From Anaerocolumna sp. (lineage in GTDB: Bacteria; Bacillota; Clostridia; Lachnospirales; Lachnospiraceae), in contig JBAVPE010000113.1 of the NCBI GenBank assembly GCA_049692775.1, positions 1,692-65,691 on the forward strand: DNA of 64,000 bases. Direction: 5' to 3'. Of the stretch, positions 30,486 through 58,898 are shown one piece after another. How positions within the stretch are numbered: the first letter of the stretch is position 1; the number at the start of each line of letters is the position of its first letter. The notes under the pieces are model-generated. The model searched no databases. It had not been told where the DNA came from and saw only the letters and a list, made by a program, of their open reading frames with translations. A program made the position numbers and the translations under genes.

Positions 30486-32309
30486 TTATTCGACTGTAAC
30501 GGATTTAGCTAAGTTACGGGGCTGATCTACATTTAATCCGCGGTGTACGGAGGTATAATAGGCAAGTAACTGTAATACAACTGCAGTTGTAAAAGGAGCC
30601 ATATTATCGGCTGATTCAGGTAAGGCAATGTGAGAGTCATATATAGAAGCGTCAACATCAGAGGCTCCATTGGTAATTAATAGAACGAAGGCTTCTCTGG
30701 CACGAACTTCACGGATATTGGATATCATCTTTTTGAAAACATTGGACTGGGTAGCAAGTGCAATAACAGGGACACCTTCTGTTATAAGGGAAAGAGTTCC
30801 ATGCTTTAACTCACCGGCAGCATAAGCTTCGGAATGAATATAACTGATTTCTTTTAACTTAATAGAACCTTCACAGGATAAGGCATAATCAAGACCACGG
30901 CCAATAAAGAATAAATCTTCTTTATCTGCAAGGTTTAAACAGATTTTATCAATATCTTCAGCTAAAGTTAAAGTTTCTTCAATTGCAGGTATTACGGACT
31001 GAAGCTGCTTTATATGAGCAATACATTCGGTTTCGGTTATGGTTCCTTTGATTAGTGCAAAGTGATAAGCAATCAGATAAAGACAGGATAACTGGGCCGT
31101 ATAAGCCTTTGTACTGGCAACGGCAATTTCAGGACCTGCGTGGGTATATAATACATAATCACTTTCCCTGGCGATGGAGGAGCCTTTTACATTAACAATG
31201 GATAAAGTTTTTGCCTGGTGTTCATTGGCGAGCCTGAGGGCGGCTAAAGTATCGGCAGTTTCACCGGACTGGGAAACGGTTATTAGTAAAGTAGTTTCAT
31301 CTATAATCGGATCCTGGTAGCGGAATTCCGAGGCAATTTCTACGGTTACAGGAATACGGAGTAGTTTTTCCATCATAACTTTACCCACTAAACCTGCGTG
31401 CATAGCTGTTCCGCAGGCTGTAATAATAATACGGTTTATTCCGTTAAATACCTGATCCGGTATTCCGTCCGTTGTAAAATCAGGCAGTTGTTTGTTTTTA
31501 ATACGTGGCATAATTGTTGAACGGAGGGATTCCGGCTGCTCATGGATTTCTTTTAACATAAAATGAGGATAACCGCCCTTTTGGGCGGAGGTTACATCCC
31601 AATTAACATAAAGCATCTTAGGTGAAATAATTTCATCATTTAAATCCGTTACTGTAATATCTTCTTTTGACAAACGTGCAATATGCATCTGCGGTAAAAC
31701 AAAATATTCCCTGGAATATTTAATTAATGCAACCATGTCAGAGGCAATAATGGATCCTTCTTTAGAATGACAGGCAACTAACGGACTTCCGTTCCGTAAA
31801 CAATAAATCACTTCCGGTTCATCAGCAAATAAGATACAAAAAGCATAAGCACCATTAAGCCGGTCAATTGCTTTCTTTATGGCAGTTATGGCATCACCTT
31901 CGTATAAGCTGTCAATTAACATAGCAACGATTTCCGTATCAGTCTGTGATACGGGGAATTTTCCTAAAGCGGCAAGTTCCATTTCTAACTCGTGATAATT
32001 TTCAATAATACCGTTATGAATTAAAGTTACTTTTCCAAAGGTATGGGGGTGTGAGTTTGTATCCGATACACCGCCATGGGTTGCCCAACGGGTGTGGCCG
32101 ATACCGCAGGTACTGCCCGCGTCAGCAGATAAAGCCACCTTATCACGGAGGGAGGATACCTTACCGGTTGTTTTGACCGTATCTATATTGCCATTATGAA
32201 AGAATGCTATACCTGCACTGTCATATCCACGGTATTCCAATGCGGAAAGTCCCTCCAATAACACATTTTTTGCTTCAGAATAGCCAGTAAAACCAATGAT
32301 TCCACACAT
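30486..32309 (-). CDS. glmS: glutamine--fructose-6-phosphate aminotransferase
   Basis: Starts MCGIIGF (N-terminal Cys nucleophile) at 32309 with an AAAGGAG RBS; the track start at 32435 is upstream read-through. Two SIS domains and a C-terminal ...KSVTVE. Confidence 0.95.
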   Translation of the reverse strand: MCGIIGFTGYSEAKNVLLEGLSALEYRGYDSAGIAFFHNGNIDTVKTTGKVSSLRDKVALSADAGSTCGIGHTRWATHGGVSDTNSHPHTFGKVTLIHNGIIENYHELEMELAALGKFPVSQTDTEIVAMLIDSLYEGDAITAIKKAIDRLNGAYAFCILFADEPEVIYCLRNGSPLVACHSKEGSIIASDMVALIKYSREYFVLPQMHIARLSKEDITVTDLNDEIISPKMLYVNWDVTSAQKGGYPHFMLKEIHEQPESLRSTIMPRIKNKQLPDFTTDGIPDQVFNGINRIIITACGTAMHAGLVGKVMMEKLLRIPVTVEIASEFRYQDPIIDETTLLITVSQSGETADTLAALRLANEHQAKTLSIVNVKGSSIARESDYVLYTHAGPEIAVASTKAYTAQLSCLYLIAYHFALIKGTITETECIAHIKQLQSVIPAIEETLTLAEDIDKICLNLADKEDLFFIGRGLDYALSCEGSIKLKEISYIHSEAYAAGELKHGTLSLITEGVPVIALATQSNVFKKMISNIREVRAREAFVLLITNGASDVDASIYDSHIALPESADNMAPFTTAVVLQLLAYYTSVHRGLNVDQPRNLAKSVTVE

Positions 32310-32589
32310 AAAATTAACTCCTTTCTTATTTTCGCATAACAATAAGCCAAGTGATAATTTGATTTTTGCATAGCAGAAAAAAGCCCGGGAAAAACTGTTT
32401 GGGACGTATTTTAAACCTATGAATATAAATTGCACTTAGTTAACGTATGCGAAGCAGCCAATCGATTCACGATTTAGCTGATAAATTTTCAATGTTCCTA
32501 ATACCAATAACTTAAATTAAGAAATTCAATCAGAATTCACAGCAATACTAAGCTTCAATCATTCATTGAAGTCATAGCAATACCTAATT

Positions 32590-32766: not shown

Positions 32767-32998
32767 TTTAAACATTTCTGTTAGTCTGATCTTGGGTTGA
32801 TCTTATTGTAGGCTGCATCAGTATTACAAAATTAATATATGTAACCACACTCCTTTCGGTTACAATCATGTAATATGGAAAAATTAAAAAATGCAATTTT
32901 GTAATGGTGACATGTTAACATGAAAAGGAAGAAAAGTCAATATTTTGAGCGGAAAGAGTCCCTCTTATTTGGGACAGCCTGATTTTCTATATTGTGCA

Positions 32999-33041
32999 AA
33001 TAAGGACGTTATTTAAAATAAATAGCGTCCTTATTTTTTTT
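32999..33041 (+). terminator. orphan rho-independent terminator upstream of the rhaB leader
   Basis: AATAAGGACG (32999-33008) pairs with CGTCCTTATT (33026-33035), followed by a T-run. No annotated plus-strand gene lies upstream. Confidence 0.6.
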
Positions 33042-33162
33042 GATTTTTACGATATAATAATGATATCAGATAATGGATGTAACGAAAAATAAGCTGGGGA
33101 ATTTGAGATGCCGCAAAAAGGCATCATGTTTGAAAGGGGCTGCGGGTCAGCCATGTCGCGAA

Positions 33163-33272
33163 GAGTGAAAGAAAATATAGATAATGAAAGGTTGCCACAA
33201 TATGATTCTTTCACTCCTTTTTATTTGTGGCAATATCGCGGACAGGTCAGCGATATGCAATGGGTGTAAAAT
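33163..33272 (+). promoter_or_regulatory. structured 5' leader, copy A (terminator-like P1, pseudoknot P2, hairpin P3, TGCAATGGGTGT box)
   Basis: P1 is GAGTGAAAGAA (33163-33173) with TTCTTTCACTC (33206-33216), followed by CTTTTTATTT. P2 is TTGCCACAA (33192-33200) with TTGTGGCAA (33225-33233). P3 is ATATCGC with GCGATAT. The whole unit is paralogous to 50301-50410. Confidence 0.6.
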
Positions 33273-34673
33273 ATGCCAAATTACTATTTAGCAGTAGATA
33301 TTGGAGCGTCCAGTGGCAGACATATTTTGGGATGCCTTCAGGATGGAAAAATTACATTAGAAGAAATTTACCGTTTTGATAATGGAATGGTAAAAAAAGA
33401 CGGATATTTGTGCTGGGAACTTGACAGACTTTTTGATGAAATCAAGAACGGTTTAAAAAAGTGTAAGGAGCTTGGCAAAATTCCAACCAGCATGGGAATT
33501 GATACCTGGGCTGTGGATTTTGTCTTACTTGATAAAAAGGATCGGGTTCTTGGCAATACCGTAGGATATCGTGATAAAAGAACAAATGGAATGGATACCT
33601 TGGTTTATAATGAGATTACGGAAGATGAGTTATATAACAGAACAGGAATCCAAAAACAGATTTTTAATACGATTTATCAATTAATGGCTGTTAAAACGCA
33701 GCATCCGGAGTATTTAAAAGAAGCGCAGAGTTTTTTAATGGTACCGGACTATTTTAATTATTTACTTACAGGTAATAAATTAAATGAATATACTAATGCA
33801 ACAACCACACAGTTAGTAAGCCCTGTTACGAAGGATTGGGATGAAGGCTTAATCGACAAATTAGGTTTTAATAAAAAAATGTTCCATAAAATATCTTTAC
33901 CGGGAACAGCGGTAGGAAACTTTTCTGATCTTATCAGGGAAGAAGCCGGATTTGATTGTGAAGTAATTTTACCGGCAACTCATGACACCGGTTCTGCGGT
34001 ATTATCTGTTCCTGCTAATGATGATGATTACTTATATATCAGTTCAGGAACCTGGTCTTTAATGGGCATTGAAAGGCAGGAGGCAGATTGCACTAATATA
34101 AGTAAAGATGCCAATTTTACCAATGAAGGCGGTTATGATTATAGGTTCAGATATCTAAAAAATATTATGGGATTATGGATGATCCAATCCGTAAAGCATG
34201 AGTTAAAGGATACTTATTCTTATAATAAATTATGTGAACTGGCACAGGAAGCAGATACATTTAAATCCAGGGTGGATGTAAATGATGACTTATTTCTATC
34301 TCCGGAGAATATGACGGATGCCATTAAGAAATACTGTAAAGATACGGATCAGAAAGAACCATCTACCGTAGGGGAGCTGGCGGCCTGTATTTATCATAGT
34401 TTAGCCAGGAGTTATGCAGATACAGTGGAAGAAATTGAAAAGATTACCGGAAAATCCTATTCCCGGATTCACATCGTAGGCGGTGGTTCCAAGGATGATT
34501 ATTTAAACGAGTTAACGGCAAAATATACTAAGAAGTCTGTTTATGCAGGTCCTGCAGAAGCAACGGCAATAGGGAATATCCTTGCACAAATGTTAAAAGC
34601 TGAGGATTATAAATCCATAGAGGAAGCAAGAACGGGAGTGTTTAATTCCTTTCCAATCATAAACTTCAAATAA
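33273..34673 (+). CDS. rhaB: rhamnulokinase
   Basis: 466 aa FGGY kinase. N-terminus YYLAVDIGASSGRHILG and overall RhaB-like pattern, directly upstream of rhaA. Confidence 0.85.
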   Translation: MPNYYLAVDIGASSGRHILGCLQDGKITLEEIYRFDNGMVKKDGYLCWELDRLFDEIKNGLKKCKELGKIPTSMGIDTWAVDFVLLDKKDRVLGNTVGYRDKRTNGMDTLVYNEITEDELYNRTGIQKQIFNTIYQLMAVKTQHPEYLKEAQSFLMVPDYFNYLLTGNKLNEYTNATTTQLVSPVTKDWDEGLIDKLGFNKKMFHKISLPGTAVGNFSDLIREEAGFDCEVILPATHDTGSAVLSVPANDDDYLYISSGTWSLMGIERQEADCTNISKDANFTNEGGYDYRFRYLKNIMGLWMIQSVKHELKDTYSYNKLCELAQEADTFKSRVDVNDDLFLSPENMTDAIKKYCKDTDQKEPSTVGELAACIYHSLARSYADTVEEIEKITGKSYSRIHIVGGGSKDDYLNELTAKYTKKSVYAGPAEATAIGNILAQMLKAEDYKSIEEARTGVFNSFPIINFK

Positions 34674-36087: not shown

Positions 36088-37914
36088 TTAGATAGGATTC
36101 GATTTTAAAGCAGGAATTCTTATTTCTACTTCAGTATATTCTCCTTCCCGGCTTCGGTAGCGTAAACCAAATTGCGTATCATAATAAAGCTGCAGCCTGT
36201 TATGTGTGTTAAGAATGCCCACGCCGCTTCCGGTGGAACTTTGTATTTTGCCGGACATGAGCTGGTCGATTTTCTCTTTAGGGATACCAACGCCATCATC
36301 AGAGATGATAAAAACAAGGGTATCATCTTCCGTCCATCCTGTAATTACGATGTTCCCTTCTTTAGATTCCTTACAGAATATACCGTGCTGTATGGCATTC
36401 TCAACAACGGGCTGGAAGATTATTTTAGGGATAGTATATTCCAGCATGTTATCCGGAATATCCACGGTAAAATGAATTTTATTGTCATAGCGCATATTTT
36501 GCAATTGAATATACAAAGAAACATGTTCTAATTCATCTTCGATGGTAACTACAATATTTCCTTTCCGTAAAGTCATTTTATAAAACTTGGATAAAGCCTG
36601 TACCGCAATGGACACATCCCCGTTCAGCCCTTTTTTAGAAAGCCAGTTAATCATATCCAATGTATTATACAAAAAATGCGGATTGATTTGTGCCTGAAGG
36701 GCCTTAAATTCAGCGGTTCTTAACTCACTTGCTGTTTTAACCTGTTCCTCGGATAAGTTATTTATTTCACCAATCATATAATTATAAGTTTCAATTAAAT
36801 CACCGATTTCATCATGTTCAGCGGGGGTATTCAAAGGGGTTGGTTCATTTGTCTTCACGGATTTCATTTGATTGATTACAGTTGAAATACGCCGGACGAT
36901 GGAATTAGAGAGCAATAAGGAAACGATACAGGCAAAAGCTAATACCAGTACATATGCTAATAAGAATTCCATAATAAGGGACTTGTTTTCAGACCAGATA
37001 CTGTTAATCGGTATTACTGATATCATATACCAGTCAGCCCCATTTATTACCTGATAGGATATATAACATTTGTCTGAGGAAAATGTTTTGATTTCAAATT
37101 TATTCGTATCCGGCACCAGGGGGGGGATCTCATTATAATATACCAGATACTTACCCACCAGATTTGTACTGGAAGAGGAAACGACGGCATCCCTTTCATT
37201 TATAATATATTTGGCACTGCCTGGGAGTGTGGTATATTCTTTTAACATGGAATTAAGATAGGATTTATCAAAATATACAGCCACGTAAGCTGCCTCTGAA
37301 TTATCCTTACCGCTTATTTTACGGGTAAAGGAAATTAAACCAGAACTTTTTTTTTCTTTGGAGGTAAGATACAGGGTGGGGCACAGAAGCAGCCTTTCGC
37401 CGGTACTTGAAAATATGCCGTGCCAATAAGAATTTTGTATATCACTAATGGGCCTTAATATCCCATTGCTGATTAATTCTGTGTCTTTATAATAATCCTG
37501 GTAGGCAGGGCTAAGATAAATTTTAATATCCGTTACGGTAACGCCGTCTATTTTAGCATCCACGGCCTGGAGGAAGGAGTTAAGATTTGCATAAAGCTCA
37601 TCATAGTTTTCAGTGGATTTATGAAAAGACCGGTTGGATAGCATTTCGGTAAAGGTATCGTCTTTCACGATTTCACTTGAAATATTACGGATATCCTCAA
37701 TGGTATTCTCAATATTGCCCACGGTTTCCCGGGATAAACTTAATTCCGTATCTTTCGTATTGGAAACAATGATATTAAAAAGCTGGCTGTAAAAGAGGGC
37801 AGTAATCATTAAAATCGGAGCCAGGATTAAAATAAGATGCGAAATTAAAAGCTTATGTTTTAACCTCATATCATTTGAATAATAACGAATCAGCTTTCTT
37901 ATAATTCTTATCAT
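36088..37914 (-). CDS. sensor histidine kinase (YesM-like: two TM segments, extracellular sensor, HAMP, His_kinase, HATPase)
   Basis: 608 aa. H-box QINPHFLYNTLD and N/G boxes of the LytS/YesM class. Overlaps the regulator gene by 4 nt. Confidence 0.85.
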   Translation of the reverse strand: MIRIIRKLIRYYSNDMRLKHKLLISHLILILAPILMITALFYSQLFNIIVSNTKDTELSLSRETVGNIENTIEDIRNISSEIVKDDTFTEMLSNRSFHKSTENYDELYANLNSFLQAVDAKIDGVTVTDIKIYLSPAYQDYYKDTELISNGILRPISDIQNSYWHGIFSSTGERLLLCPTLYLTSKEKKSSGLISFTRKISGKDNSEAAYVAVYFDKSYLNSMLKEYTTLPGSAKYIINERDAVVSSSSTNLVGKYLVYYNEIPPLVPDTNKFEIKTFSSDKCYISYQVINGADWYMISVIPINSIWSENKSLIMEFLLAYVLVLAFACIVSLLLSNSIVRRISTVINQMKSVKTNEPTPLNTPAEHDEIGDLIETYNYMIGEINNLSEEQVKTASELRTAEFKALQAQINPHFLYNTLDMINWLSKKGLNGDVSIAVQALSKFYKMTLRKGNIVVTIEDELEHVSLYIQLQNMRYDNKIHFTVDIPDNMLEYTIPKIIFQPVVENAIQHGIFCKESKEGNIVITGWTEDDTLVFIISDDGVGIPKEKIDQLMSGKIQSSTGSGVGILNTHNRLQLYYDTQFGLRYRSREGEYTEVEIRIPALKSNPI

Positions 37915-39464
37915 TTTCCAAACCGCTCCCTATATTCCGATGGGGACAGGCCGACTATTTTTTTGAAGGCTTTACCAAAATAGTTGCTGTCGCTGTAGCC
38001 GGCTTTCGCGGATATATCTGTAATTTTATATCTGGAATCCATAAGCATGTTCTTTGCCTTTTCAATACGGAATTCAGTAAGAAACTGATTTAAGGTTTTA
38101 CCGGTTTCATTTTTAAATAGTGTGCATACATAGGTGGAGGATAAAAAAACATGTTCGCTGATATCTTTTACGGAAAGATTTTCATTGCGGTAATTCTTAC
38201 CTATAAACTCCTTGATTGCATAAATAGTAGCATTATCTTTGGAGTGTTCCTGCAGGTAAGAAAATAATAAATTGATTTTATCCTGCAATAGCCGGTGTAA
38301 TTCCATTAAATTGTAATCCCGTGAGACATACTCAAGGACGGTCGCAGAACCTTCTTCATAAAAAGCCGGTATATGGAGATTTGAGGCAGTTTGAATCAGT
38401 GCGGTAAACAATTTATAGTAAAGATCTTTTACATAATTAGGCAGTACTTGCTGATTTCCTTTATAACTGTTAAATAAAGCAGTTACCACCTCAATTACTT
38501 CTTCCTTATTATTTTGGTTTAAGGCTTCTGTATATCGGGTAAAAAGAGATTGGTCAGGCACAGGGGGATGGGGTGCTGCTTCTGATACTATAATACTGTT
38601 ATAATCATAAAAAAAGGAACTATGTAATAATACAACAGCCAGGTTGTAAGATTCAAATATATTTTTAATTCCCCTAACAGTTTTACCGACGGCAATATAA
38701 TACTGATAATTTTTATTTAAATAAGCTGAAAGTGAAAAACAGATATTACGGAGTGCATATCCACTTGTTTTGTTTGTAGAAAATAAATGTAATATTAAAA
38801 ATTCATCATTTTTAATGGCAAGGATATGATTCATATGGAATTTAGTTACGATTTCATCAATGTTATAATAAAGTTCATTCAGGATCTGTTCCGAAATACT
38901 GGAAACAGCAGTTTTTAAAGTAATAATAATAGTAGTAAATTCCGTAACCGGTTTTATCTGTAATCCTAACTCTTCAAATTTTTTTGTATAATCGGAATAA
39001 TTTTCTTTTGATGCTGGATAGATTACCTGCAGTGCCAATTTATTTAACGAATATTTATTATGATAATCGGATTTAATCTGATTTTTAATATGTGTTATTT
39101 GTTCTTCCTGAGCAAGTTTAATTGATGTTTCCAGTTCCCCGGCATCAATTGGTTTTTCCACATAACTGATTACTTTTAACTTAATGGCTTCTTTTAAATA
39201 TTCCTTATCCGAGTAACCACTCATAAATATAATACTGGAAAGGGGTAATATTTTCTGGATTTCTTTTGCCATCTCGATTCCATTCATCCTCGGCATTCTG
39301 ACATCACTTAAAATAATATCCGGTTTGTGTATCCTGCAAAGTTCAATTCCATTAAGTCCATCATCTGCTTCATAGATCTTGTCTATACCAAGCAATTTCC
39401 AATTTAAATTAGAGATGATACCTTCTCTGGTTAATTTTTCATCATCAGTTATTAATATTTTCAT
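37911..39464 (-). CDS. response regulator with AraC-type HTH output (YesN-like)
   Basis: REC domain MKILITDDE...DIILSDVRMPRMNG plus a C-terminal AraC HTH (GYSDSNYFGKAFKK). Confidence 0.9.
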   Translation of the reverse strand: MKILITDDEKLTREGIISNLNWKLLGIDKIYEADDGLNGIELCRIHKPDIILSDVRMPRMNGIEMAKEIQKILPLSSIIFMSGYSDKEYLKEAIKLKVISYVEKPIDAGELETSIKLAQEEQITHIKNQIKSDYHNKYSLNKLALQVIYPASKENYSDYTKKFEELGLQIKPVTEFTTIIITLKTAVSSISEQILNELYYNIDEIVTKFHMNHILAIKNDEFLILHLFSTNKTSGYALRNICFSLSAYLNKNYQYYIAVGKTVRGIKNIFESYNLAVVLLHSSFFYDYNSIIVSEAAPHPPVPDQSLFTRYTEALNQNNKEEVIEVVTALFNSYKGNQQVLPNYVKDLYYKLFTALIQTASNLHIPAFYEEGSATVLEYVSRDYNLMELHRLLQDKINLLFSYLQEHSKDNATIYAIKEFIGKNYRNENLSVKDISEHVFLSSTYVCTLFKNETGKTLNQFLTEFRIEKAKNMLMDSRYKITDISAKAGYSDSNYFGKAFKKIVGLSPSEYRERFGK

Positions 39465-39813: not shown

Positions 39814-41328
39814 ATGAACATGTCTGATTATGTTCTTGAACTAAAAGGAATAACCAAAATATTTCCGGGTATTAAGGCTTTAGATCATGTACACTTTCAA
39901 CTAAAGAAAGGTGAGATTCATGCTTTGATGGGTGAAAACGGAGCCGGTAAATCAACCTTTATTAAAGTTATTACAGGGGTGCATAAAGCAGAAGAAGGCA
40001 GTATGTTCCTGGATGGGAAGGAAGTAAGTTTTAAAAATCCGAAAGAAGCACAGGCAGCAGGAATAGCGGCGATTTATCAGCATGTAACGGCATATCCCCA
40101 TCTTACGGTTACTGAAAATATATTTATGGGGCATGAAAAGGTTCAAAAAGGAACGGGCAGAATACTTTGGAGCCAGATGCATACCGAAGCAAATGAATTG
40201 TTAAGGGAATTAAGTGCAGACTTTGATGCAACAACTGAAATGGGAACCTTAAGTGTTGCGCAGCAGCAGATGGTTGAGATTGCAAAAGCACTCTCCATGA
40301 AGGCCGGAATAATCATAATGGATGAACCAACTGCAGCATTAACAAAAAGAGAAAGTGAAGAATTATATAAAATAGCAGGGAAATTAAGGGATGACGGAGC
40401 TTCCATTATATTCATATCACATCGTTTTGAAGACATGTACCGCCTTGCAACCAAGGTAACCGTATTCAGGGATTCTAAATATATCGGAAGTTACGATGTC
40501 AACGGTATTACCAATGAGGACTTAATCGTAGCCATGGTAGGCCGTGAAATAACCCAGCTTTTTCCTAAACCGGAAATTAAAATCGGCAAGGAGGTTTTAA
40601 AAGTAGAAAATATCGGTCGTACCGGTTATTTTAAAGAGGTAAGCTTTCATGTCAGGAAAGGTGAAATCTTAGGTCTTACCGGACTTGTAGGGGCTGGACG
40701 TACAGAAGTATGTGAAACCATATTTGGTATTGAGCCAAAAGAAGAAGGAAAAATTTATTTTAACGGCAAGGAAGTAGATATTAAAGGCCCTTTAGAAGCC
40801 ATGAAGTTAGGAATTGGTTACTTGCCGGAAGACCGGCAAAGGCAAGGTCTGATCTTAGATTGGGGAATCGGTCAAAATATCACTTTACCTATCATAGATA
40901 AAATGACGGCAAAAGGTCTGCTTAACCAGAAAAAAGAAAGAGAATTAGGAAAAATGCTTGCTGAAAAGGTTGATACGAAAGCAGTAACAATTTTTGATAA
41001 AGCAAGTTCCTTGTCCGGCGGGAATCAGCAAAAAGTTGTAGTTGCTAAATTATTAGCTTCCGATTTAAAACTTCTTATACTGGATGAACCAACAAAAGGT
41101 GTCGACGTTGGTGCAAAAGCTGCCATTTATGAGATTATGGGTGAACTGGCCAAACAAGGTTATGCAATTATTATGGTATCCTCTGAAATGCCGGAAATTT
41201 TAGGCATGTGTGACAGAATTGTTGTTATGTGCGATGGAAGGGTAACCGGAGAATTATTACGCGGGGAAGCTACACAGGAAGCAATACTGGAAAAGGGCAT
41301 GGCTAAAACTGTTCATAGTAAAGGGTAA
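39814..41328 (+). CDS. sugar (rhamnose-type) ABC transporter ATP-binding protein with duplicated ATPase
   Basis: 504 aa. Two Walker A sites (GENGAGKST, GLVGAGRTE) and two signature motifs. Located in the rhamnose cluster. Confidence 0.85.
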   Translation: MNMSDYVLELKGITKIFPGIKALDHVHFQLKKGEIHALMGENGAGKSTFIKVITGVHKAEEGSMFLDGKEVSFKNPKEAQAAGIAAIYQHVTAYPHLTVTENIFMGHEKVQKGTGRILWSQMHTEANELLRELSADFDATTEMGTLSVAQQQMVEIAKALSMKAGIIIMDEPTAALTKRESEELYKIAGKLRDDGASIIFISHRFEDMYRLATKVTVFRDSKYIGSYDVNGITNEDLIVAMVGREITQLFPKPEIKIGKEVLKVENIGRTGYFKEVSFHVRKGEILGLTGLVGAGRTEVCETIFGIEPKEEGKIYFNGKEVDIKGPLEAMKLGIGYLPEDRQRQGLILDWGIGQNITLPIIDKMTAKGLLNQKKERELGKMLAEKVDTKAVTIFDKASSLSGGNQQKVVVAKLLASDLKLLILDEPTKGVDVGAKAAIYEIMGELAKQGYAIIMVSSEMPEILGMCDRIVVMCDGRVTGELLRGEATQEAILEKGMAKTVHSKG

Positions 41329-41342
41329 GGGGGGGATTAGGA

Positions 41343-42338
41343 ATGGAGAAAAATAAGTTTAACATTAAAAAAATAACAGGTACAAGGGAAATGAGTTTAG
41401 TGGTTATACTGATTGTCCTTTGTATATTCATACAGGCAAGGAACAGCACCTTTATGTCAATGACAAATATTAATGACCTGGTGACGAACGCAGTTATGAT
41501 GAGTATATTAGCCGTTGGTATGATGTGCGTATTATTAATCGGCGGTATTGATATTTCCATCGGATCCACCATAGCATTTTCCGGAATGTCGGTAGCCTTA
41601 CTATTAAGGGCACATCCTGAAATTCCAACCATTATATCCTTTATCCTTGGAATTCTGGCAGGAACCTTATGCGGCTTATTGGCAGGACTTATTATTTCAA
41701 AGGGGAAAGTTATCCCTATTATTGCAACCTTAGGTTTAATGAATGTTTACCGCGGTGCTACTTATCTGATTGCTAATAACCAATGGGTTGCGGCATATCA
41801 GTTACCGGAAGATTTAAAGGCGTTTGCAACCGGTAAATTTTTAGGAATCAACAATATGATCGTGGTTGCAATCCTTATCTATCTTGTTTTTGCATATTTT
41901 ATTAAATTTACAAGAACCGGAAGAAAAATTTATGCAGTAGGAAGTAATGTAGATGCAGCAGGAATCAGCGGTATTAATATTGACGGAATTAAAATTTTAG
42001 TATATTCCATTATGGGTGGCTTAGCAGGTTTAGTCAGCGTACTTTGGTTATCCAAATATGCTTCTGCCCAAGGTGATGCGGCGACAGGCCTGGAAATTGA
42101 TATTATTGCAGCCTGTGTTATCGGCGGTGTCAGCTTAAACGGCGGTAAAGGAACCGTATTAGGGGTAATACTCGGAACTATCACTTTGGGCATATTAAAT
42201 AATGCATTACCTTTAATCAATATTTCACCTTTTTGGCAGGATGCAATCAAAGGATTGGTTATTATATTAGCGATTATCATTAATACAACATCCCAAAGAT
42301 CCATTGACAGGAAAAATCTAAAAAGGAGGGAACTTTAA
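41343..42338 (+). CDS. sugar ABC transporter permease (RbsC/RhaP-like)
   Basis: 331 aa, multi-TM, BPD_transp_2 pattern. Confidence 0.85.
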   Translation: MEKNKFNIKKITGTREMSLVVILIVLCIFIQARNSTFMSMTNINDLVTNAVMMSILAVGMMCVLLIGGIDISIGSTIAFSGMSVALLLRAHPEIPTIISFILGILAGTLCGLLAGLIISKGKVIPIIATLGLMNVYRGATYLIANNQWVAAYQLPEDLKAFATGKFLGINNMIVVAILIYLVFAYFIKFTRTGRKIYAVGSNVDAAGISGINIDGIKILVYSIMGGLAGLVSVLWLSKYASAQGDAATGLEIDIIAACVIGGVSLNGGKGTVLGVILGTITLGILNNALPLINISPFWQDAIKGLVIILAIIINTTSQRSIDRKNLKRREL

Positions 42339-42340
42339 TT

Positions 42341-43351
42341 ATGGGTAAGACAAAAAGAGTAATTAGTGCAGAACAGAAGTTTTCCCTAAAAAATTTTTTT
42401 CTACAATGGGAATGGTTTTTAGTATTGATATTTATTGGAATTAACATAATGAATTCCGATTTATCACCGTATTATATGAATGCGGACGGGCTGTTAAATG
42501 CTACATCATCATTCTTAGAAAAAGCTTTCCTGGCTTTACCGATGGTTTTTATATTAATCCTTGGGGAAATTGATATATCAGTAGGTTCAACGGTAGCATT
42601 ATCCTCCGTAGTAATGGCAGTTTCTTATAACAATCTGGGTGTTCCCATGGGAGTTGCAATCTTAATTTGTTTATTAACCGGAACACTTTGCGGTTTTATC
42701 AATGGCTTTATCTTAACAAAATATAAAGAACTTGCACCTATGATCGTAACTTTAGGTACGCAGATTTTGTATCGCGGTATTGCCACAATGATACTGAAAG
42801 ATCAGGCGTCCGGAAGTTTCCCTACCTGGTTTAGTGATCTATATTGGGGATCTTTAGGCAGCATACCTTATATGTTAATTACATTTATCATTTTAGCGGT
42901 CATATTTGGGGTCGTTTTGCACAAAACAACCTTCGGGAGAAGAGTATATGCAATCGGCAGTAACCGTGTAGCCAGCAGATATTCCGGTATTCAGGTTGAC
43001 AAGATCAGATTAATTATCTATACCGTAACCGGTACAATGGCTGCAGTTACTGCAATCTTCTTAACTTCCAGAATGGGAAGTACAAGACCGAATATCGCTA
43101 TGGCATATGAAATGGATGCAATCGCAATGGTAGTGCTTGGAGGTATCTCCACCAGCGGCGGTAAAGGAAGATTTATGGGAGCGGTCATATCTATATTTAT
43201 TATTGGTTTCTTAAGATATGGCTTAGGTTTAATCAATGTAAGCTCACAGGTTATGTTAATCATTATAGGCTGCCTTCTTATTGGAGCAGTAATGATTCCA
43301 AAATTAAATCTTGGAAGACTATTTAAAAAGAAAGCAGTAAAAGAAGCATAA
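42341..43351 (+). CDS. sugar ABC transporter permease (RbsC/RhaQ-like)
   Basis: 336 aa, multi-TM, paralog of the preceding permease. Confidence 0.85.
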   Translation: MGKTKRVISAEQKFSLKNFFLQWEWFLVLIFIGINIMNSDLSPYYMNADGLLNATSSFLEKAFLALPMVFILILGEIDISVGSTVALSSVVMAVSYNNLGVPMGVAILICLLTGTLCGFINGFILTKYKELAPMIVTLGTQILYRGIATMILKDQASGSFPTWFSDLYWGSLGSIPYMLITFIILAVIFGVVLHKTTFGRRVYAIGSNRVASRYSGIQVDKIRLIIYTVTGTMAAVTAIFLTSRMGSTRPNIAMAYEMDAIAMVVLGGISTSGGKGRFMGAVISIFIIGFLRYGLGLINVSSQVMLIIIGCLLIGAVMIPKLNLGRLFKKKAVKEA

Positions 43352-43482
43352 TAAAAAAGTTTTATTCCCTTTCATTTAAAAAATGGGTAGTAAGTATATG
43401 GCAGTTAAGATAAATACACAAAATAACAACGTTACAGATGGCGAAAGCTATTCATGTATAAAAATATATTAGGAGGTTTACT

Positions 43483-44565
43483 ATGAAAAAAATCAAAAAA
43501 GTTATATCACTGGTACTTTTACTTTCCCTGACAGTAAGCTTATTGGCAGCATGCGGAAAAAAAGCACCTGAGACACAGACACAGGAAGGTAACACCGATA
43601 CTAATACAGCTGCAGGCACCGATTCCGTGGCAGGCAGGAATTTTGCGATCTTAGTTAAAAGTGCCGGAAATCCTTATAATGAAAAAGAAAGTGCTGGTTT
43701 TAAAGATGTAATTGAAGCTGCAGGGGCTACTGCTATCATCAAAGCACCGGAATCTGCAACAGCAGAAGCACAGATTACCATGATTAATGAATTAATTGCT
43801 CAAAAGGTAGACGCTATTGCAATCGCCGGTAATGATTTTGATGCTCTTTTGCCGGCGCTTAAGAAAGCTATGGAGGAAGGAATTAAAGTATTATCCCTTG
43901 ATGCATCCGTTAATAAAGACAGCCGTATGGTTCATATTAATCAGGCAGATGGTGAGAAAATTGGCCGTACATTAATCCAGGCAACAAAGGAAATGGTAAA
44001 TGGAGAAGGACAAATTGCCATTCTTAGTGCTACAAGCCAGGCAGCAAACCAGAACACCTGGATTGAATGGATGAAAAAGGAATTAGAAGAAGGAGATTAT
44101 AAAGGTATTGAATTAGTTAAAATTGCTTATGGTGATGACGAATTCCAAAAATCCGTTGATGAAACAGAAGCCTTACTTAAAAACTATCCGGACTTAAAAG
44201 CAATTATCGCGCCTACAACGGTTGGTATCATGGCTGCAGCTAAAGTTATTACAGATAAAGGCTTAATCGGCAAAGTTGCAGTAACTGGTCTTGGACTTCC
44301 AAGTGAAATGGCAGAGTATATTTCTAACGGCTCCTGTCCATGGATGTATTTATGGAATCCAATTGATGTAGGCGGTTTAGCGGCTTATGCATCTATGGCA
44401 CTTGTTAAAGGAGATATTACCGGTGCGGCAGGCGATAAATTTGATGCCGGTTCCCTTGGTTCTTATGAAGTTATTGCCGCAGCAGATGGTGGTACAGAAG
44501 TTCTCTTAGGAGCACCATTTAAATTTGATCCGGACAACATTGAGGAATGGAAATCAGTATACTAA
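43483..44565 (+). CDS. sugar (probably rhamnose) ABC transporter substrate-binding lipoprotein
   Basis: Lipobox LLAACG and a PBP1 (RbsB/LsrB/RhaS-like) fold. AGGAGG RBS. Confidence 0.8.
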   Translation: MKKIKKVISLVLLLSLTVSLLAACGKKAPETQTQEGNTDTNTAAGTDSVAGRNFAILVKSAGNPYNEKESAGFKDVIEAAGATAIIKAPESATAEAQITMINELIAQKVDAIAIAGNDFDALLPALKKAMEEGIKVLSLDASVNKDSRMVHINQADGEKIGRTLIQATKEMVNGEGQIAILSATSQAANQNTWIEWMKKELEEGDYKGIELVKIAYGDDEFQKSVDETEALLKNYPDLKAIIAPTTVGIMAAAKVITDKGLIGKVAVTGLGLPSEMAEYISNGSCPWMYLWNPIDVGGLAAYASMALVKGDITGAAGDKFDAGSLGSYEVIAAADGGTEVLLGAPFKFDPDNIEEWKSVY

Positions 44566-47897: not shown

Positions 47898-47922
47898 GCA
47901 TACTAAAGCATGCAAACGGGAG
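47898..47922 (+). promoter_or_regulatory. hairpin-SD module copy 1 (degenerate, distal)
   Basis: GCATAC-TAAA-GCATGC followed by AAACGGGAG. One mismatch in the stem. Lies 28 nt upstream of the adh start. Confidence 0.5.
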
Positions 47923-49894: not shown

Positions 49895-49920
49895 GCGTGC
49901 GTGTAGCACGCAGACGGGAA
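49895..49920 (+). promoter_or_regulatory. hairpin-SD module copy 2 (distal)
   Basis: GCGTGC-GTGTA-GCACGC followed by AGACGGGAA, then a 9-codon mini-ORF starting at 49922. Confidence 0.55.
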
Positions 49921-49958
49921 CATGTGTAAAAGAAATTTTTACATTCCCTGATTTAAAA

Positions 49959-49983
49959 GCGTGCTAAGGCACGCAGAGTGGAG
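49959..49983 (+). promoter_or_regulatory. hairpin-SD module copy 3 (proximal; serves the shell gene at 49991)
   Basis: GCGTGC-TAAG-GCACGC followed by AGAGTGGAG. The ATG is 7 nt after GGAG. Confidence 0.6.
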
Positions 49984-49990
49984 CTTATAT

Positions 49991-50275: not shown

Positions 50276-50300
50276 CGGATGCTTATACAAAAAATGCTAA

Positions 50301-50410
50301 GTTGAAAGAAAATTTAAATTAGAAAGGTCTGCCAGTATTGATTCTTTCAACATTTTTATTTATGGCAGTATCACATCTATAAGAAGATATGATATGCAAT
50401 GGGTGTTACT
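50301..50410 (+). promoter_or_regulatory. structured leader, copy B (operon-internal)
   Basis: P1 is GTTGAAAGAA (50301-50310) with TTCTTTCAAC (50342-50351), followed by ATTTTTATTT. P2 is CTGCCA (50329-50334) with TGGCAG (50363-50368). P3 is TATCACATC with GATATGATA. The TGCAATGGGTGT box is at 50395-50406. Confidence 0.6.
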
Positions 50411-50839
50411 ATGGCAGAAGCAAAAAAGCCTGAAGTGAAAGCAGTCACAAAAGAATCAGCAAAAGAAGAAATAAAAGAAGAGATAAAAGAAACAGTAAAA
50501 GAGACAATAAAACCAATCAAAAAAGAAACAGTTAAAACAACTGTTAAGGAGGAAAAAAGAATGGCACAGGAAGCATTAGGTATGGTAGAAACCAGAGGTT
50601 TAGTTGCAGCAATTGAAGCAGCAGATTCAATGTTAAAGGCAGCCAATGTAACATTAGTTGGAACAGAAAAAATCGGTTCCGGACTTGTAAGTGTTATGGT
50701 CAGGGGCGATGTAGGTGCAGTTAAGGCAGCAGTAGAATCAGGTGCAAGCTCAGCATCAAAACTTGGTGAATTAGTAGCTACTCACGTAATCCCAAGACCA
50801 CACACAGATGTAGAAAAAATTCTTCCATCATTAAAATAA
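50411..50839 (+). CDS. BMC-H shell protein (PduA-like) with a ~50-aa Lys/Glu-rich N-terminal extension; possible second internal start at 50561
   Basis: The ATG at 50411 sits after the conserved GGGTGT box in the position the rhaB ATG holds in copy A. The ATG at 50399 is in frame and cannot be excluded. A strong AAGGAGG RBS precedes the internal ATG at 50561 ([13 protein letters not shown]...). Confidence 0.7.
50462..50557 (+). repeat. eight tandem 12-nt units encoding K-E/T-x-I/V tetrapeptides
   Basis: The reading frame gives [32 protein letters not shown]. Confidence 0.65.
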
Positions 50840-54912: not shown

Positions 54913-54937
54913 GCACGCTGAAGCGTGCAGACGGGAG
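54913..54937 (+). promoter_or_regulatory. hairpin-SD module copy 4 (distal)
   Basis: GCACGC-TGAA-GCGTGC followed by AGACGGGAG, then GTG-TAA. Confidence 0.55.
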
Positions 54938-54977
54938 CAAGTGTAAAGAAAAAGCATCATTACACTGGAAGAACCCT

Positions 54978-55026: not shown

Positions 55027-55051
55027 GCATGCTGAAGCATGCAGACGGGAG
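55027..55051 (+). promoter_or_regulatory. hairpin-SD module copy 5 (proximal; serves the GRE gene)
   Basis: GCATGC-TGAA-GCATGC followed by AGACGGGAG. The ATG is 6 nt after GGAG. Confidence 0.6.
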
Positions 55052-55057
55052 CACAGT

Positions 55058-58422: not shown

Positions 58423-58490
58423 CTGGATTTAATCAGATTGGAGTAAGGTGAAAAATGATACAGTATATTTTTCACCATCCTGATATATAC

Positions 58491-58515
58491 GCGTGCTAAA
58501 GCACGCAGATTGGAG
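58491..58515 (+). promoter_or_regulatory. hairpin-SD module copy 6 (proximal; serves the PduU/EutS-like gene)
   Basis: GCGTGC-TAAA-GCACGC followed by AGATTGGAG. The ATG is 5 nt after GGAG. Preceded by a 10-bp hairpin GGTGAAAAAT/ATTTTTCACC (58447-58476). Confidence 0.6.
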
Positions 58516-58520
58516 TTTAT

Positions 58521-58898
58521 ATGGATATTCAGGATATGTTAACAAGTGAAAATAAATTGAGAATTATTCAGGAGATTGTACCGGGAAAACAAATTACAAT
58601 TGCCCATGTCATTGCCAATCCCGATGATATCCTGTATAAAAAACTTGGACTTAACCCGGAGATGGATTACCATAAATCTGCTATCGGCATTGTAACCCTT
58701 TCTCCCAGTGAGACAGCTATTATTGCCAGTGATTTAGCGATAAAAACTTCCGGTGTGGAATTAGGGTTTGTGGATCGTTTCAGCGGTACTTTAATTGTAA
58801 CAGGCAGTGTATCGGAAGTAGAAACCTCCCTTAAGGCCATTGTAGAGTATACTAAGGATAAATTAAATTTTACGGTATGTGAAATAACAAGGACATGA
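58521..58898 (+). CDS. circularly permuted BMC shell protein (PduU/EutS-like)
   Basis: 125 aa. IQEIVPGKQITIAHVIANP...AIGIVTLSPSETAIIASDLAIKTSGVEL. Confidence 0.85.
   Translation: MDIQDMLTSENKLRIIQEIVPGKQITIAHVIANPDDILYKKLGLNPEMDYHKSAIGIVTLSPSETAIIASDLAIKTSGVELGFVDRFSGTLIVTGSVSEVETSLKAIVEYTKDKLNFTVCEITRT

Follow-up and report, generated by a model that had tools for sequence, protein, structure and literature searches.

This study concerns two leader sequences of about 110 nt in a 64,000-nt stretch of DNA from Anaerocolumna sp. (contig JBAVPE010000113.1, positions 1,692 to 65,691, forward strand), the whole of which is referred to as the window. Copy A lies directly upstream of rhaB, and copy B between two shell-protein genes of a bacterial microcompartment (BMC) operon. 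Sequence comparison suggests that both are old, diverged members of a family of elements of about 110 nt that, in some Lachnospiraceae-type clostridia, is present in dozens of copies per genome. They are probably generic, insertion-derived and ligand-independent leader cassettes that bring their own weak Shine-Dalgarno sequence (SD), and that take no part in sensing rhamnose or fucose. The family members are numerous, stand in a strict orientation and at a strict spacing before unrelated genes, are present or absent at orthologous sites, often carry relics of native SDs at their upstream border, and have helices that covary in the manner of RNA.

The initial annotation had recognised the two leaders, and their sequences and positions were confirmed. 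Pairwise alignment with 80-nt flanks showed that their likeness runs from TGAAAGAAAAT to the ATG, about 113 nt, with an identity of 61%. Since the similarity ends at the element borders, the copies are not parts of a longer duplication. A hidden Markov model (HMM) of both copies matched the window at A and B (E = 6e-31 and 1e-27) and nowhere else, and a covariance model of the family (R1), run on the window with filters off, scored copy A at 113.9 bits and copy B at 91.6 bits, the next hit having E = 0.28. Both copies contain the previously described helices P1, P2 and P3, GAAAGG in the loop and the TGCAATGGGTGT box, and the gene setting was likewise confirmed, with rhaB and rhaA 3' of copy A and BMC shell genes around copy B.

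Copy A (33163-33272, plus strand) occupies the 5' untranslated region (UTR) of rhaB and ends at the rhaB ATG (33273); by Pfam, rhaB (an FGGY kinase) is followed by rhaA. Its P1 pairs 33163-33173 with 33206-33216 (GAGTGAAAGAA/TTCTTTCACTC), and the outer three of these pairs covary throughout the family. The loop L1 within P1 (33163-33216) contains the SD-like GAAAGG (33186-33191) and the 5' strand of P2 (TTGCCACAA, 33192-33200), which would form a pseudoknot with TTGTGGCAA at 33225-33233. The P3 hairpin (33233-33256, ATATCGC/GCGATAT) is followed by a tail (33257-33272, GCAATGGGTGTAAAAT) with the weak SD GGGTG at 33262-33266, 6 nt before the start codon. Copy B (50301-50410, plus strand) ends at the ATG at 50411 and has a BMC shell gene on either side, in a microcompartment operon of the glycyl-radical type (Pfam). 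The corresponding parts, all on the plus strand, are P1 (50301-50310 with 50342-50351, GTTGAAAGAA/TTCTTTCAAC), GAAAGG (50322-50327), P2 (50329-50334 with 50363-50368, CTGCCA/TGGCAG), P3 (50369-50377 with 50386-50394, TATCACATC/GATATGATA) and the SD GGGTG (50401-50405). The tail of copy B also holds an ATG (caATGGGTGTTACTATG, within 50399-50413) in frame with the shell gene start at 50411, and a public gene call (P0002) begins there, giving a protein of 146 amino acids rather than the 142 obtained from 50411. This 12-nt in-frame spacing between the tail ATG and the true start is the commonest in the family.

The view that the leaders belong to no known RNA class was upheld by a search of Rfam 15, in which the window regions of copies A and B gave no match up to E <= 10 and the element in seven other loci was overlapped by no match up to E <= 0.1. 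The one Rfam family at or above its gathering score in the window was the glmS ribozyme (RF00234, 32592-32775, minus strand, 60.4 bits), which lies upstream of the glmS gene (30486-32435, minus strand).

Homologues were sought in two ways. A protein-guided scan of 80 Lachnospiraceae rhaB loci recovered the element at a single locus, that of Anaeromicropila herbilytica, in an enlarged rhaB-rhaA spacer and ending at the rhaA ATG. This copy has kept P1, GAAAGG and P2 (GCCACG/CGTGGC), while the sequence of P3 differs and an extra hairpin replaces the U-run. The closest relative of the window's RhaB in that survey, from Anaerocolumna sedimenticola (84% identity), is encoded at an element-free locus. 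A metagenome scan with the pattern TGAAAGAA-N10-14-GAAAGG-N9-15-ATTCTTTCA returned at least 120 matching stretches, and about 110 full-length homologues were present among the matches listed. Many of the matches share assemblies, and one assembly, OKWQ01, contributed at least 39 aligned copies. An HMM search of the fetched DNA added 20 hits that do not follow the strict pattern, some with changes in the supposedly invariant boxes and many of them partial. Counting extra copies in the flanks of the seeded loci, the family density is about 1 per 50 kb; the window, with 2 per 64 kb, has the ordinary density, which counts against a link to the rhamnose/fucose regulon.

All of the approximately 100 true copies examined were co-oriented with the downstream gene, with its start codon next. 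The distance from the 3' end of P1 to the start codon was 54-59 nt in 80 of 95 copies (mode 57 nt), the 3' boundary of the element fell 0-2 nt before the start codon, and GGGT(G) at SD distance from the ATG, as noted originally for copies A and B, was found in nearly all copies. The downstream genes have no common theme: among the matches listed, 66 complete proteins matched 103 Pfam families, including ABC permeases, AlaRS, GluRS, FtsY, TsaB/D, GerA, HemC, IspF, DegV, response regulators and many glycoside hydrolases. The end of a co-directional open reading frame often lies less than 150 nt upstream, so that many copies are within operons, and one is within an operon controlled by a thiamine pyrophosphate (TPP) riboswitch. 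Identity within OKWQ01 averaged 84%, with single pairs up to 99%, compared with about 61% for the window pair and for other samples, a value no higher than between samples; this is consistent with copies that multiplied recently in one lineage and are old in the others. One full copy and an upstream partial copy were also seen on a contig classed as viral (IMG/VR UViG_2585428173_000002, at 273-454 of the fetched locus).

Structure was assessed on an alignment of 106 homologous sequences. Over P1, P2 and P3 together, 92.5% of cells could pair, compared with 39-48% when the partners were slid, and 16 pairs had changes on both sides; none of 500 shuffles reached the observed values. Covariation was strong in the three outer pairs of P1 and in almost all of P3, where seven of eight pairs had both-sided changes, and RNAalifold recovered these two helices unaided. 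The P2 pseudoknot is plausible, in that 86.6% of its cells pair and it includes four changes of CG to UA, one of AU to GC and many G.U pairs, but compensatory changes are few and the helix is mostly conserved in sequence. Counts of G.U against A.C were 39/17 in P1, 59/20 in P2 and 123/12 in P3. The large excess of G.U indicates that it is the sense strand that folds, as had been proposed, and this, together with the strict sense orientation, argues for RNA. Across the family P1 is about 11-12 bp and P2 6-9 bp long, P3 abuts the SD, and in several members an optional hairpin intervenes between P1 and the 3' strand of P2; in six loci (L075, the A. herbilytica locus, and L104, L116, L151, L182 and L200) a hairpin has taken the place of the U-run. 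In locus L087 (1968-2189) about 110 nt of inserted non-coding sequence separates the half containing P1 and L1 from that containing the 3' strand of P2, P3 and the tail, at the position where other members bear the optional hairpin. Orthologous copies in different assemblies have kept the fold despite sequence change, and GAAAGG in L1 is predicted to be about 80% unpaired.

That the element is an insertion was seen by comparison of orthologous loci. Shell-protein homologues led to four orthologous BMC operons (L203 to L206). In L203 and L206 the genes are separated by element-free spacers of 27-28 nt that end in AAGGAGCTAAT immediately before the ATG (..AAAAGGAGCTAAT in L203 and ..GCAGAAGGAGCTAAT in L206), while in the window and in L205 the element stands exactly before that same ATG. 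A relic of the native intercistronic ribosome-binding site (RBS) persists upstream of copy B (50276-50300, plus strand; CGGATGCTTATACAAAAAATGCTAA, homologous to TGATGCTTAAATGCAAAAGGAGCTAAT in the empty site), its GGAG having decayed to AATG. L204 has another, shorter hairpin element at the site of copy B, and its native SD is intact. Searches with element-deleted junctions found two more filled and empty pairs, L095 with L189 (CAGGAGGGAAAAT before the ATG) and L127 with L144 (GAAGGAGGTATTAA before the ATG). More generally, 48 of 109 copies have an SD-like motif immediately 5' of P1, compared with 7 and 17 of 109 in control windows. The combination of multiple copies and presence/absence polymorphism is that expected of a miniature inverted-repeat transposable element.

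Many members have decayed, 5'-truncated, internally deleted or full tandem copies directly upstream, as if new copies land repeatedly between the tail of the previous copy and the ATG. Upstream of copy A there are two stacked modules, each a hairpin followed by an ATG (33107-33164, plus strand; GATGCC..GGCATC with ATGTTTGAAAGG, then GGCTG..CAGCC with ATGTCGCGAAGA), which may be the remains of older copies, and similar remnants occur at L089, L090, L106 and L192. Direct tandem full copies were found at L114 (960-1189) and L118 (2052-2281), with a period of 106 nt, the upstream tail (..GGAGGTATAAGG or ..GGGTATAAGG) being followed without a gap by TTGAAAG, with which the second copy begins.

These data suggest how a generic cassette of this kind might act. 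The element was inserted between the native RBS and the ATG, leaving the old SD upstream as a relic, and its 3' end (..AUGCAAUGGGUR, then 5-7 nt and the AUG) would supply both SD and spacer. In the mRNA it folds as P1, the plausible P2 pseudoknot, in which the P1 loop pairs with the segment just after P1, and P3, with GAAAGG exposed in the P1 loop. Such a cassette would fix the translation-initiation context of any gene, probably lowering or standardising initiation, and its compact fold would isolate the SD site from upstream sequence. Binding of 30S subunits, or protection of the cistron on its 5' side, may be a role of the exposed GAAAGG and the hairpins. Translation of rhaB and of the shell gene presumably starts from the weak SD of the element, GGGTG, located 6 nt upstream of the ATG.

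Several points weigh against this interpretation. The P1 core and GAAAGG were fixed by the search pattern, which accounts for their invariance across the hits; independent support comes from copies A and B, the A. herbilytica copy and a few pattern-independent hits only. No target-site duplication (TSD) was detected, the identity between flank and own tail being no better than for permuted pairs (z ~1.1); an initial weak signal vanished when tandem copies and orthologues were removed. Terminal inverted repeats (TIRs) are absent, as the ends (AAGGTTGAAAG.. and ..GGGTATAAAT) are unrelated and the sole long inverted repeat, P1, lies wholly inside the element, in its 5' half. No transposase was found, although no search aimed at a Y1 transposase or RAYT was made. 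Because transposase, TIRs and TSD were not found, it is only the polymorphism, the stacking and the copy number that point to active mobility. The 5' junction shows a weak preference for AA and nothing more, and we know of no mechanism by which insertions could be placed so precisely, 0-2 nt ahead of a start codon. Nested folding predicted the SD to be unpaired about 45% of the time on average, and only 22% in copy A and 12% in copy B. When P2 is left out, its 3' strand and the following GC compete with a 2-bp extension of P3 and with diffuse pairing of the tail. Neither folding nor covariation defined a conserved SD-sequestering helix, the partners of the SD being diffuse and non-covarying, and the low accessibility of the SD in these nested folds leaves room for a possible P2-dependent on/off switch. 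Finally, retention of the fold at individual loci, conserved unpaired nucleotides and an all-sense orientation are equally expected of a cis-regulator with a broad regulon.

Such a global cis-regulatory RNA, in which a common trans factor controls the translation of about 100 genes and the family has spread since the host exploits it, is unlikely, though not negligible. The factor might be a small ligand that signals some global state, a protein that binds RNA, a small RNA, or the 30S subunit itself acting through the exposed GAAAGG. Apart from strict sense orientation, the fixed spacing to the ATG agrees with this idea, as do the covarying helices, the conservation of unpaired positions within L1, L2 and the tail, an insertion point of variable length, the orthologous copies that have retained their fold, and the low exposure of the SD in copies A and B when P2 is omitted. 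However, the downstream genes, with their range of Pfam families, have no theme in common; the high identity among the OKWQ01 copies speaks for recent proliferation and not for an old regulon, orthologous sites are polymorphic for presence of the element, with decayed copies stacked upstream, and a clean, conserved SD-sequestering helix is lacking. A bolder proposal, which we regard as quite doubtful, is that the element belongs to a new kind of mobile or regulatory RNA that recognises translation-initiation regions, integrates precisely between SD and start codon and swaps in a pseudoknot-guarded RBS, placing about 100 unrelated genes per genome under shared translational control. One possibility for such recognition is pairing of an anti-SD-like UUCUUUC with GGAGGAA-type SDs through G.U.

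It is also improbable that the element is simply a selfish DNA repeat, the helices of which belong to a single-stranded DNA transposition intermediate (IS200/IS605-type PATE or REP-like) and the SD of which makes insertions tolerable. High copy number, lineage-specific bursts, tandem stacking, the lack of a TSD and strand-specific hairpins would all be accounted for, and one copy lies on an IMG/VR contig. Where the orientation of such repeats is set by the replication strand, a minority of antisense copies is expected, whereas every one of the true copies examined follows its gene. Old copies such as A and B, and the orthologous copies, still pair through compensatory and G.U changes, which implies continuing selection at individual loci, and no gene for a Y1 transposase or RAYT was seen, with the limit on that search given above.

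A site acting at the DNA level, whether a promoter, a transcription factor operator (for example, of the adjacent AraC-type regulator) or an invertible or recombination site, is very improbable. P1 and P2 are inverted repeats, and the neighbourhood (36088-39464) contains genes for a histidine kinase and an AraC-type response regulator. Against this, pairing is strand-specific in all three helices, the outer P1 pairs covary instead of being conserved in sequence, and the P1 arms are only about 35 bp apart. A promoter scan scored no sense-strand -35/-10 pair in copy B and a single borderline one in copy A (9/12, 33178-33206), where the scan was not clearly above chance, and the conserved promoter of rhaB is situated upstream of copy A. 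The kinase (Cache/HAMP) and regulator genes are on the minus strand between rhaBA and a sugar ABC transporter (39814-44565), for which they likely form a sugar-sensing two-component system.

The likely promoter region of rhaB itself consists of an inverted repeat (GCAAATAAGGACGT-N13-ACGTCCTTATTT, 32996-33036, plus strand) and a -10 sequence, TATAAT (33053-33058), and the same arrangement of repeat and TATAAT was found upstream of rhaB at most of the 80 Lachnospiraceae loci. The repeat is probably the operator of a rhamnose regulator. Given this conserved upstream promoter, copy A is inside a 5' UTR of about 200 nt, and rhamnose control of rhaB is likely to come from the operator and promoter at 32996-33058 and not from copy A.

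The initial annotation had instead proposed a sugar-sensing riboswitch or attenuator of a rhamnose/fucose regulon, acting on rhaB and the BMC operon with P1 and the U-run as a regulated terminator, and this is now barely credible. Both window copies are within the rhamnose/BMC cluster, a third precedes rhaA in A. herbilytica, a U-run follows P1 in copies A and B, and Rfam offered no match. Yet the remaining 79 of the 80 rhaB loci, that of A. sedimenticola included, are element-free, orthologous BMC operons do without it, and more than 100 copies precede unrelated genes; the proposal fails because the homologues show no enrichment for any gene context. Nor does the terminator survive, as the U-run is not conserved, being replaced by a hairpin in the six loci given above, the P1 loop of about 30-35 nt is atypical, and a terminator scan made no call at P1. 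Other candidates tried and rejected were a leader peptide starting at TTG/GTG at the foot of P1 (in-frame stops are scattered, within 6 codons in 27 of 106 sequences, and copy lengths differ by non-multiples of three), an internal sigma-70 promoter (direct reading found no good hexamer pair at the correct spacing), a sigma-54 promoter (the TGGCA..TGCA spacing is 3 nt too short) and an attC-like site or inverton (on direct reading, the core sites do not follow the required order and too little sequence separates the arms).

The BMC operon of the window is also filled with intercistronic modules of another family, shorter than the first, at 47898-47922, 49895-49921, 49922-49990, 54913-54938, 55027-55057 and 58447-58520. 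These consist of a GC-rich hairpin, GCGTGC-N4-GCACGC, with the compensatory variants GCATGC/GCATGC and GCACGC/GCGTGC, followed by AGA(C/G/T)(G/T)GGAG, a spacer and the ATG, and some have an A/T-rich, P1-like hairpin and a CATCCTGAT linker in front. A module of this family occupies the site of copy B in L204 (~628-700). Model R1 gave only a weak match to one such region (58445-58535, E = 0.28).

Among described elements, the closest in kind are the small interspersed repeats and miniature insertion sequences that produce structured RNA, such as the pneumococcal BOX, RUP and SPRITE, the enterobacterial ERIC, the neisserial Correia elements and BIMEs (PMC3049150). Like these, the present element is about 100 nt long, AT-rich, multi-copy, lineage-restricted and present or absent at orthologous sites, and the resemblance extends to their frequent location in operons, their folding when transcribed and, presumably, their ability to alter the expression of neighbouring genes. 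The known repeats, however, have TIRs and TSDs, occur in both orientations and tend to shun the region just upstream of genes (PMC3049150). The element described here has neither TIRs nor TSDs, is found in the sense orientation only, stands 0-2 nt from the start codon and includes its own RBS and a pseudoknot.

Partial resemblances to other systems are also apparent. The element is similar to translational riboswitches such as SAM-II and preQ1-II/III, which have an H-type pseudoknot beside the SD, in its 5'-UTR location, covarying helices, conserved loop nucleotides and a pseudoknot strand beside the RBS. Riboswitch classes are associated with the genes of one metabolite and have few copies per genome, whereas the element precedes genes of all kinds, occurs dozens of times per genome and is inserted relative to orthologous loci. 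The exposed GAAAGG(A), about 85 nt upstream of the start codon and complementary to the 3' end of 16S rRNA, is reminiscent of STAB-SD, a 5' mRNA stabiliser of Gram-positive bacteria that acts through an SD-like sequence distant from the start codon and bound to 16S rRNA, reportedly described for cryIIIA by Agaisse and Lereclus in 1996. STAB-SD is a single short sequence, while the element is a folded repeat of 110 nt, the GAAAGG of which was fixed by the search pattern. The IS200/IS605-derived PATEs and the REP elements are non-autonomous, hairpin-bearing and strand-specific, lack TSDs and can form tandem arrays, and the element shares these features, including tandem copies. It differs in that its target is a position relative to the start codon and not a fixed tetranucleotide, and we know of no Y1 transposase associated with it.

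A survey of 50 genomes by the Breaker laboratory includes a category of 'mobile/repeat sequence candidate' (PMC11109978), which the element resembles in being structured, in its many copies per genome and in that its relevance as RNA or as DNA is unclear. That category was defined partly by inconsistent gene orientation and by transposase association (PMC11109978), whereas the orientation found here is strictly consistent.

A full-text search of the literature found no description of such an element, and the family is best regarded as an undescribed, generic, high-copy leader insert. A false lead is thereby removed: the leaders are not a sugar riboswitch, and a covariance model built from copies A and B would return hundreds of unrelated hits. 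There are practical consequences for gene calling, as the ATG in the tail (ATGGGT...) has been mistaken for the start of a shell protein, and the element bears on the engineering of BMC or rhamnose operons in these organisms. It is unusual among bacterial repeats in being a structured element placed exactly at the junction of RBS and start codon and bringing its own SD. If it is mobile, it presents a targeting problem without a known solution, and if it has been put to use by the host, it would give the Lachnospiraceae, prominent members of gut and plant-fermenting communities, a means of adjusting translation across the genome.

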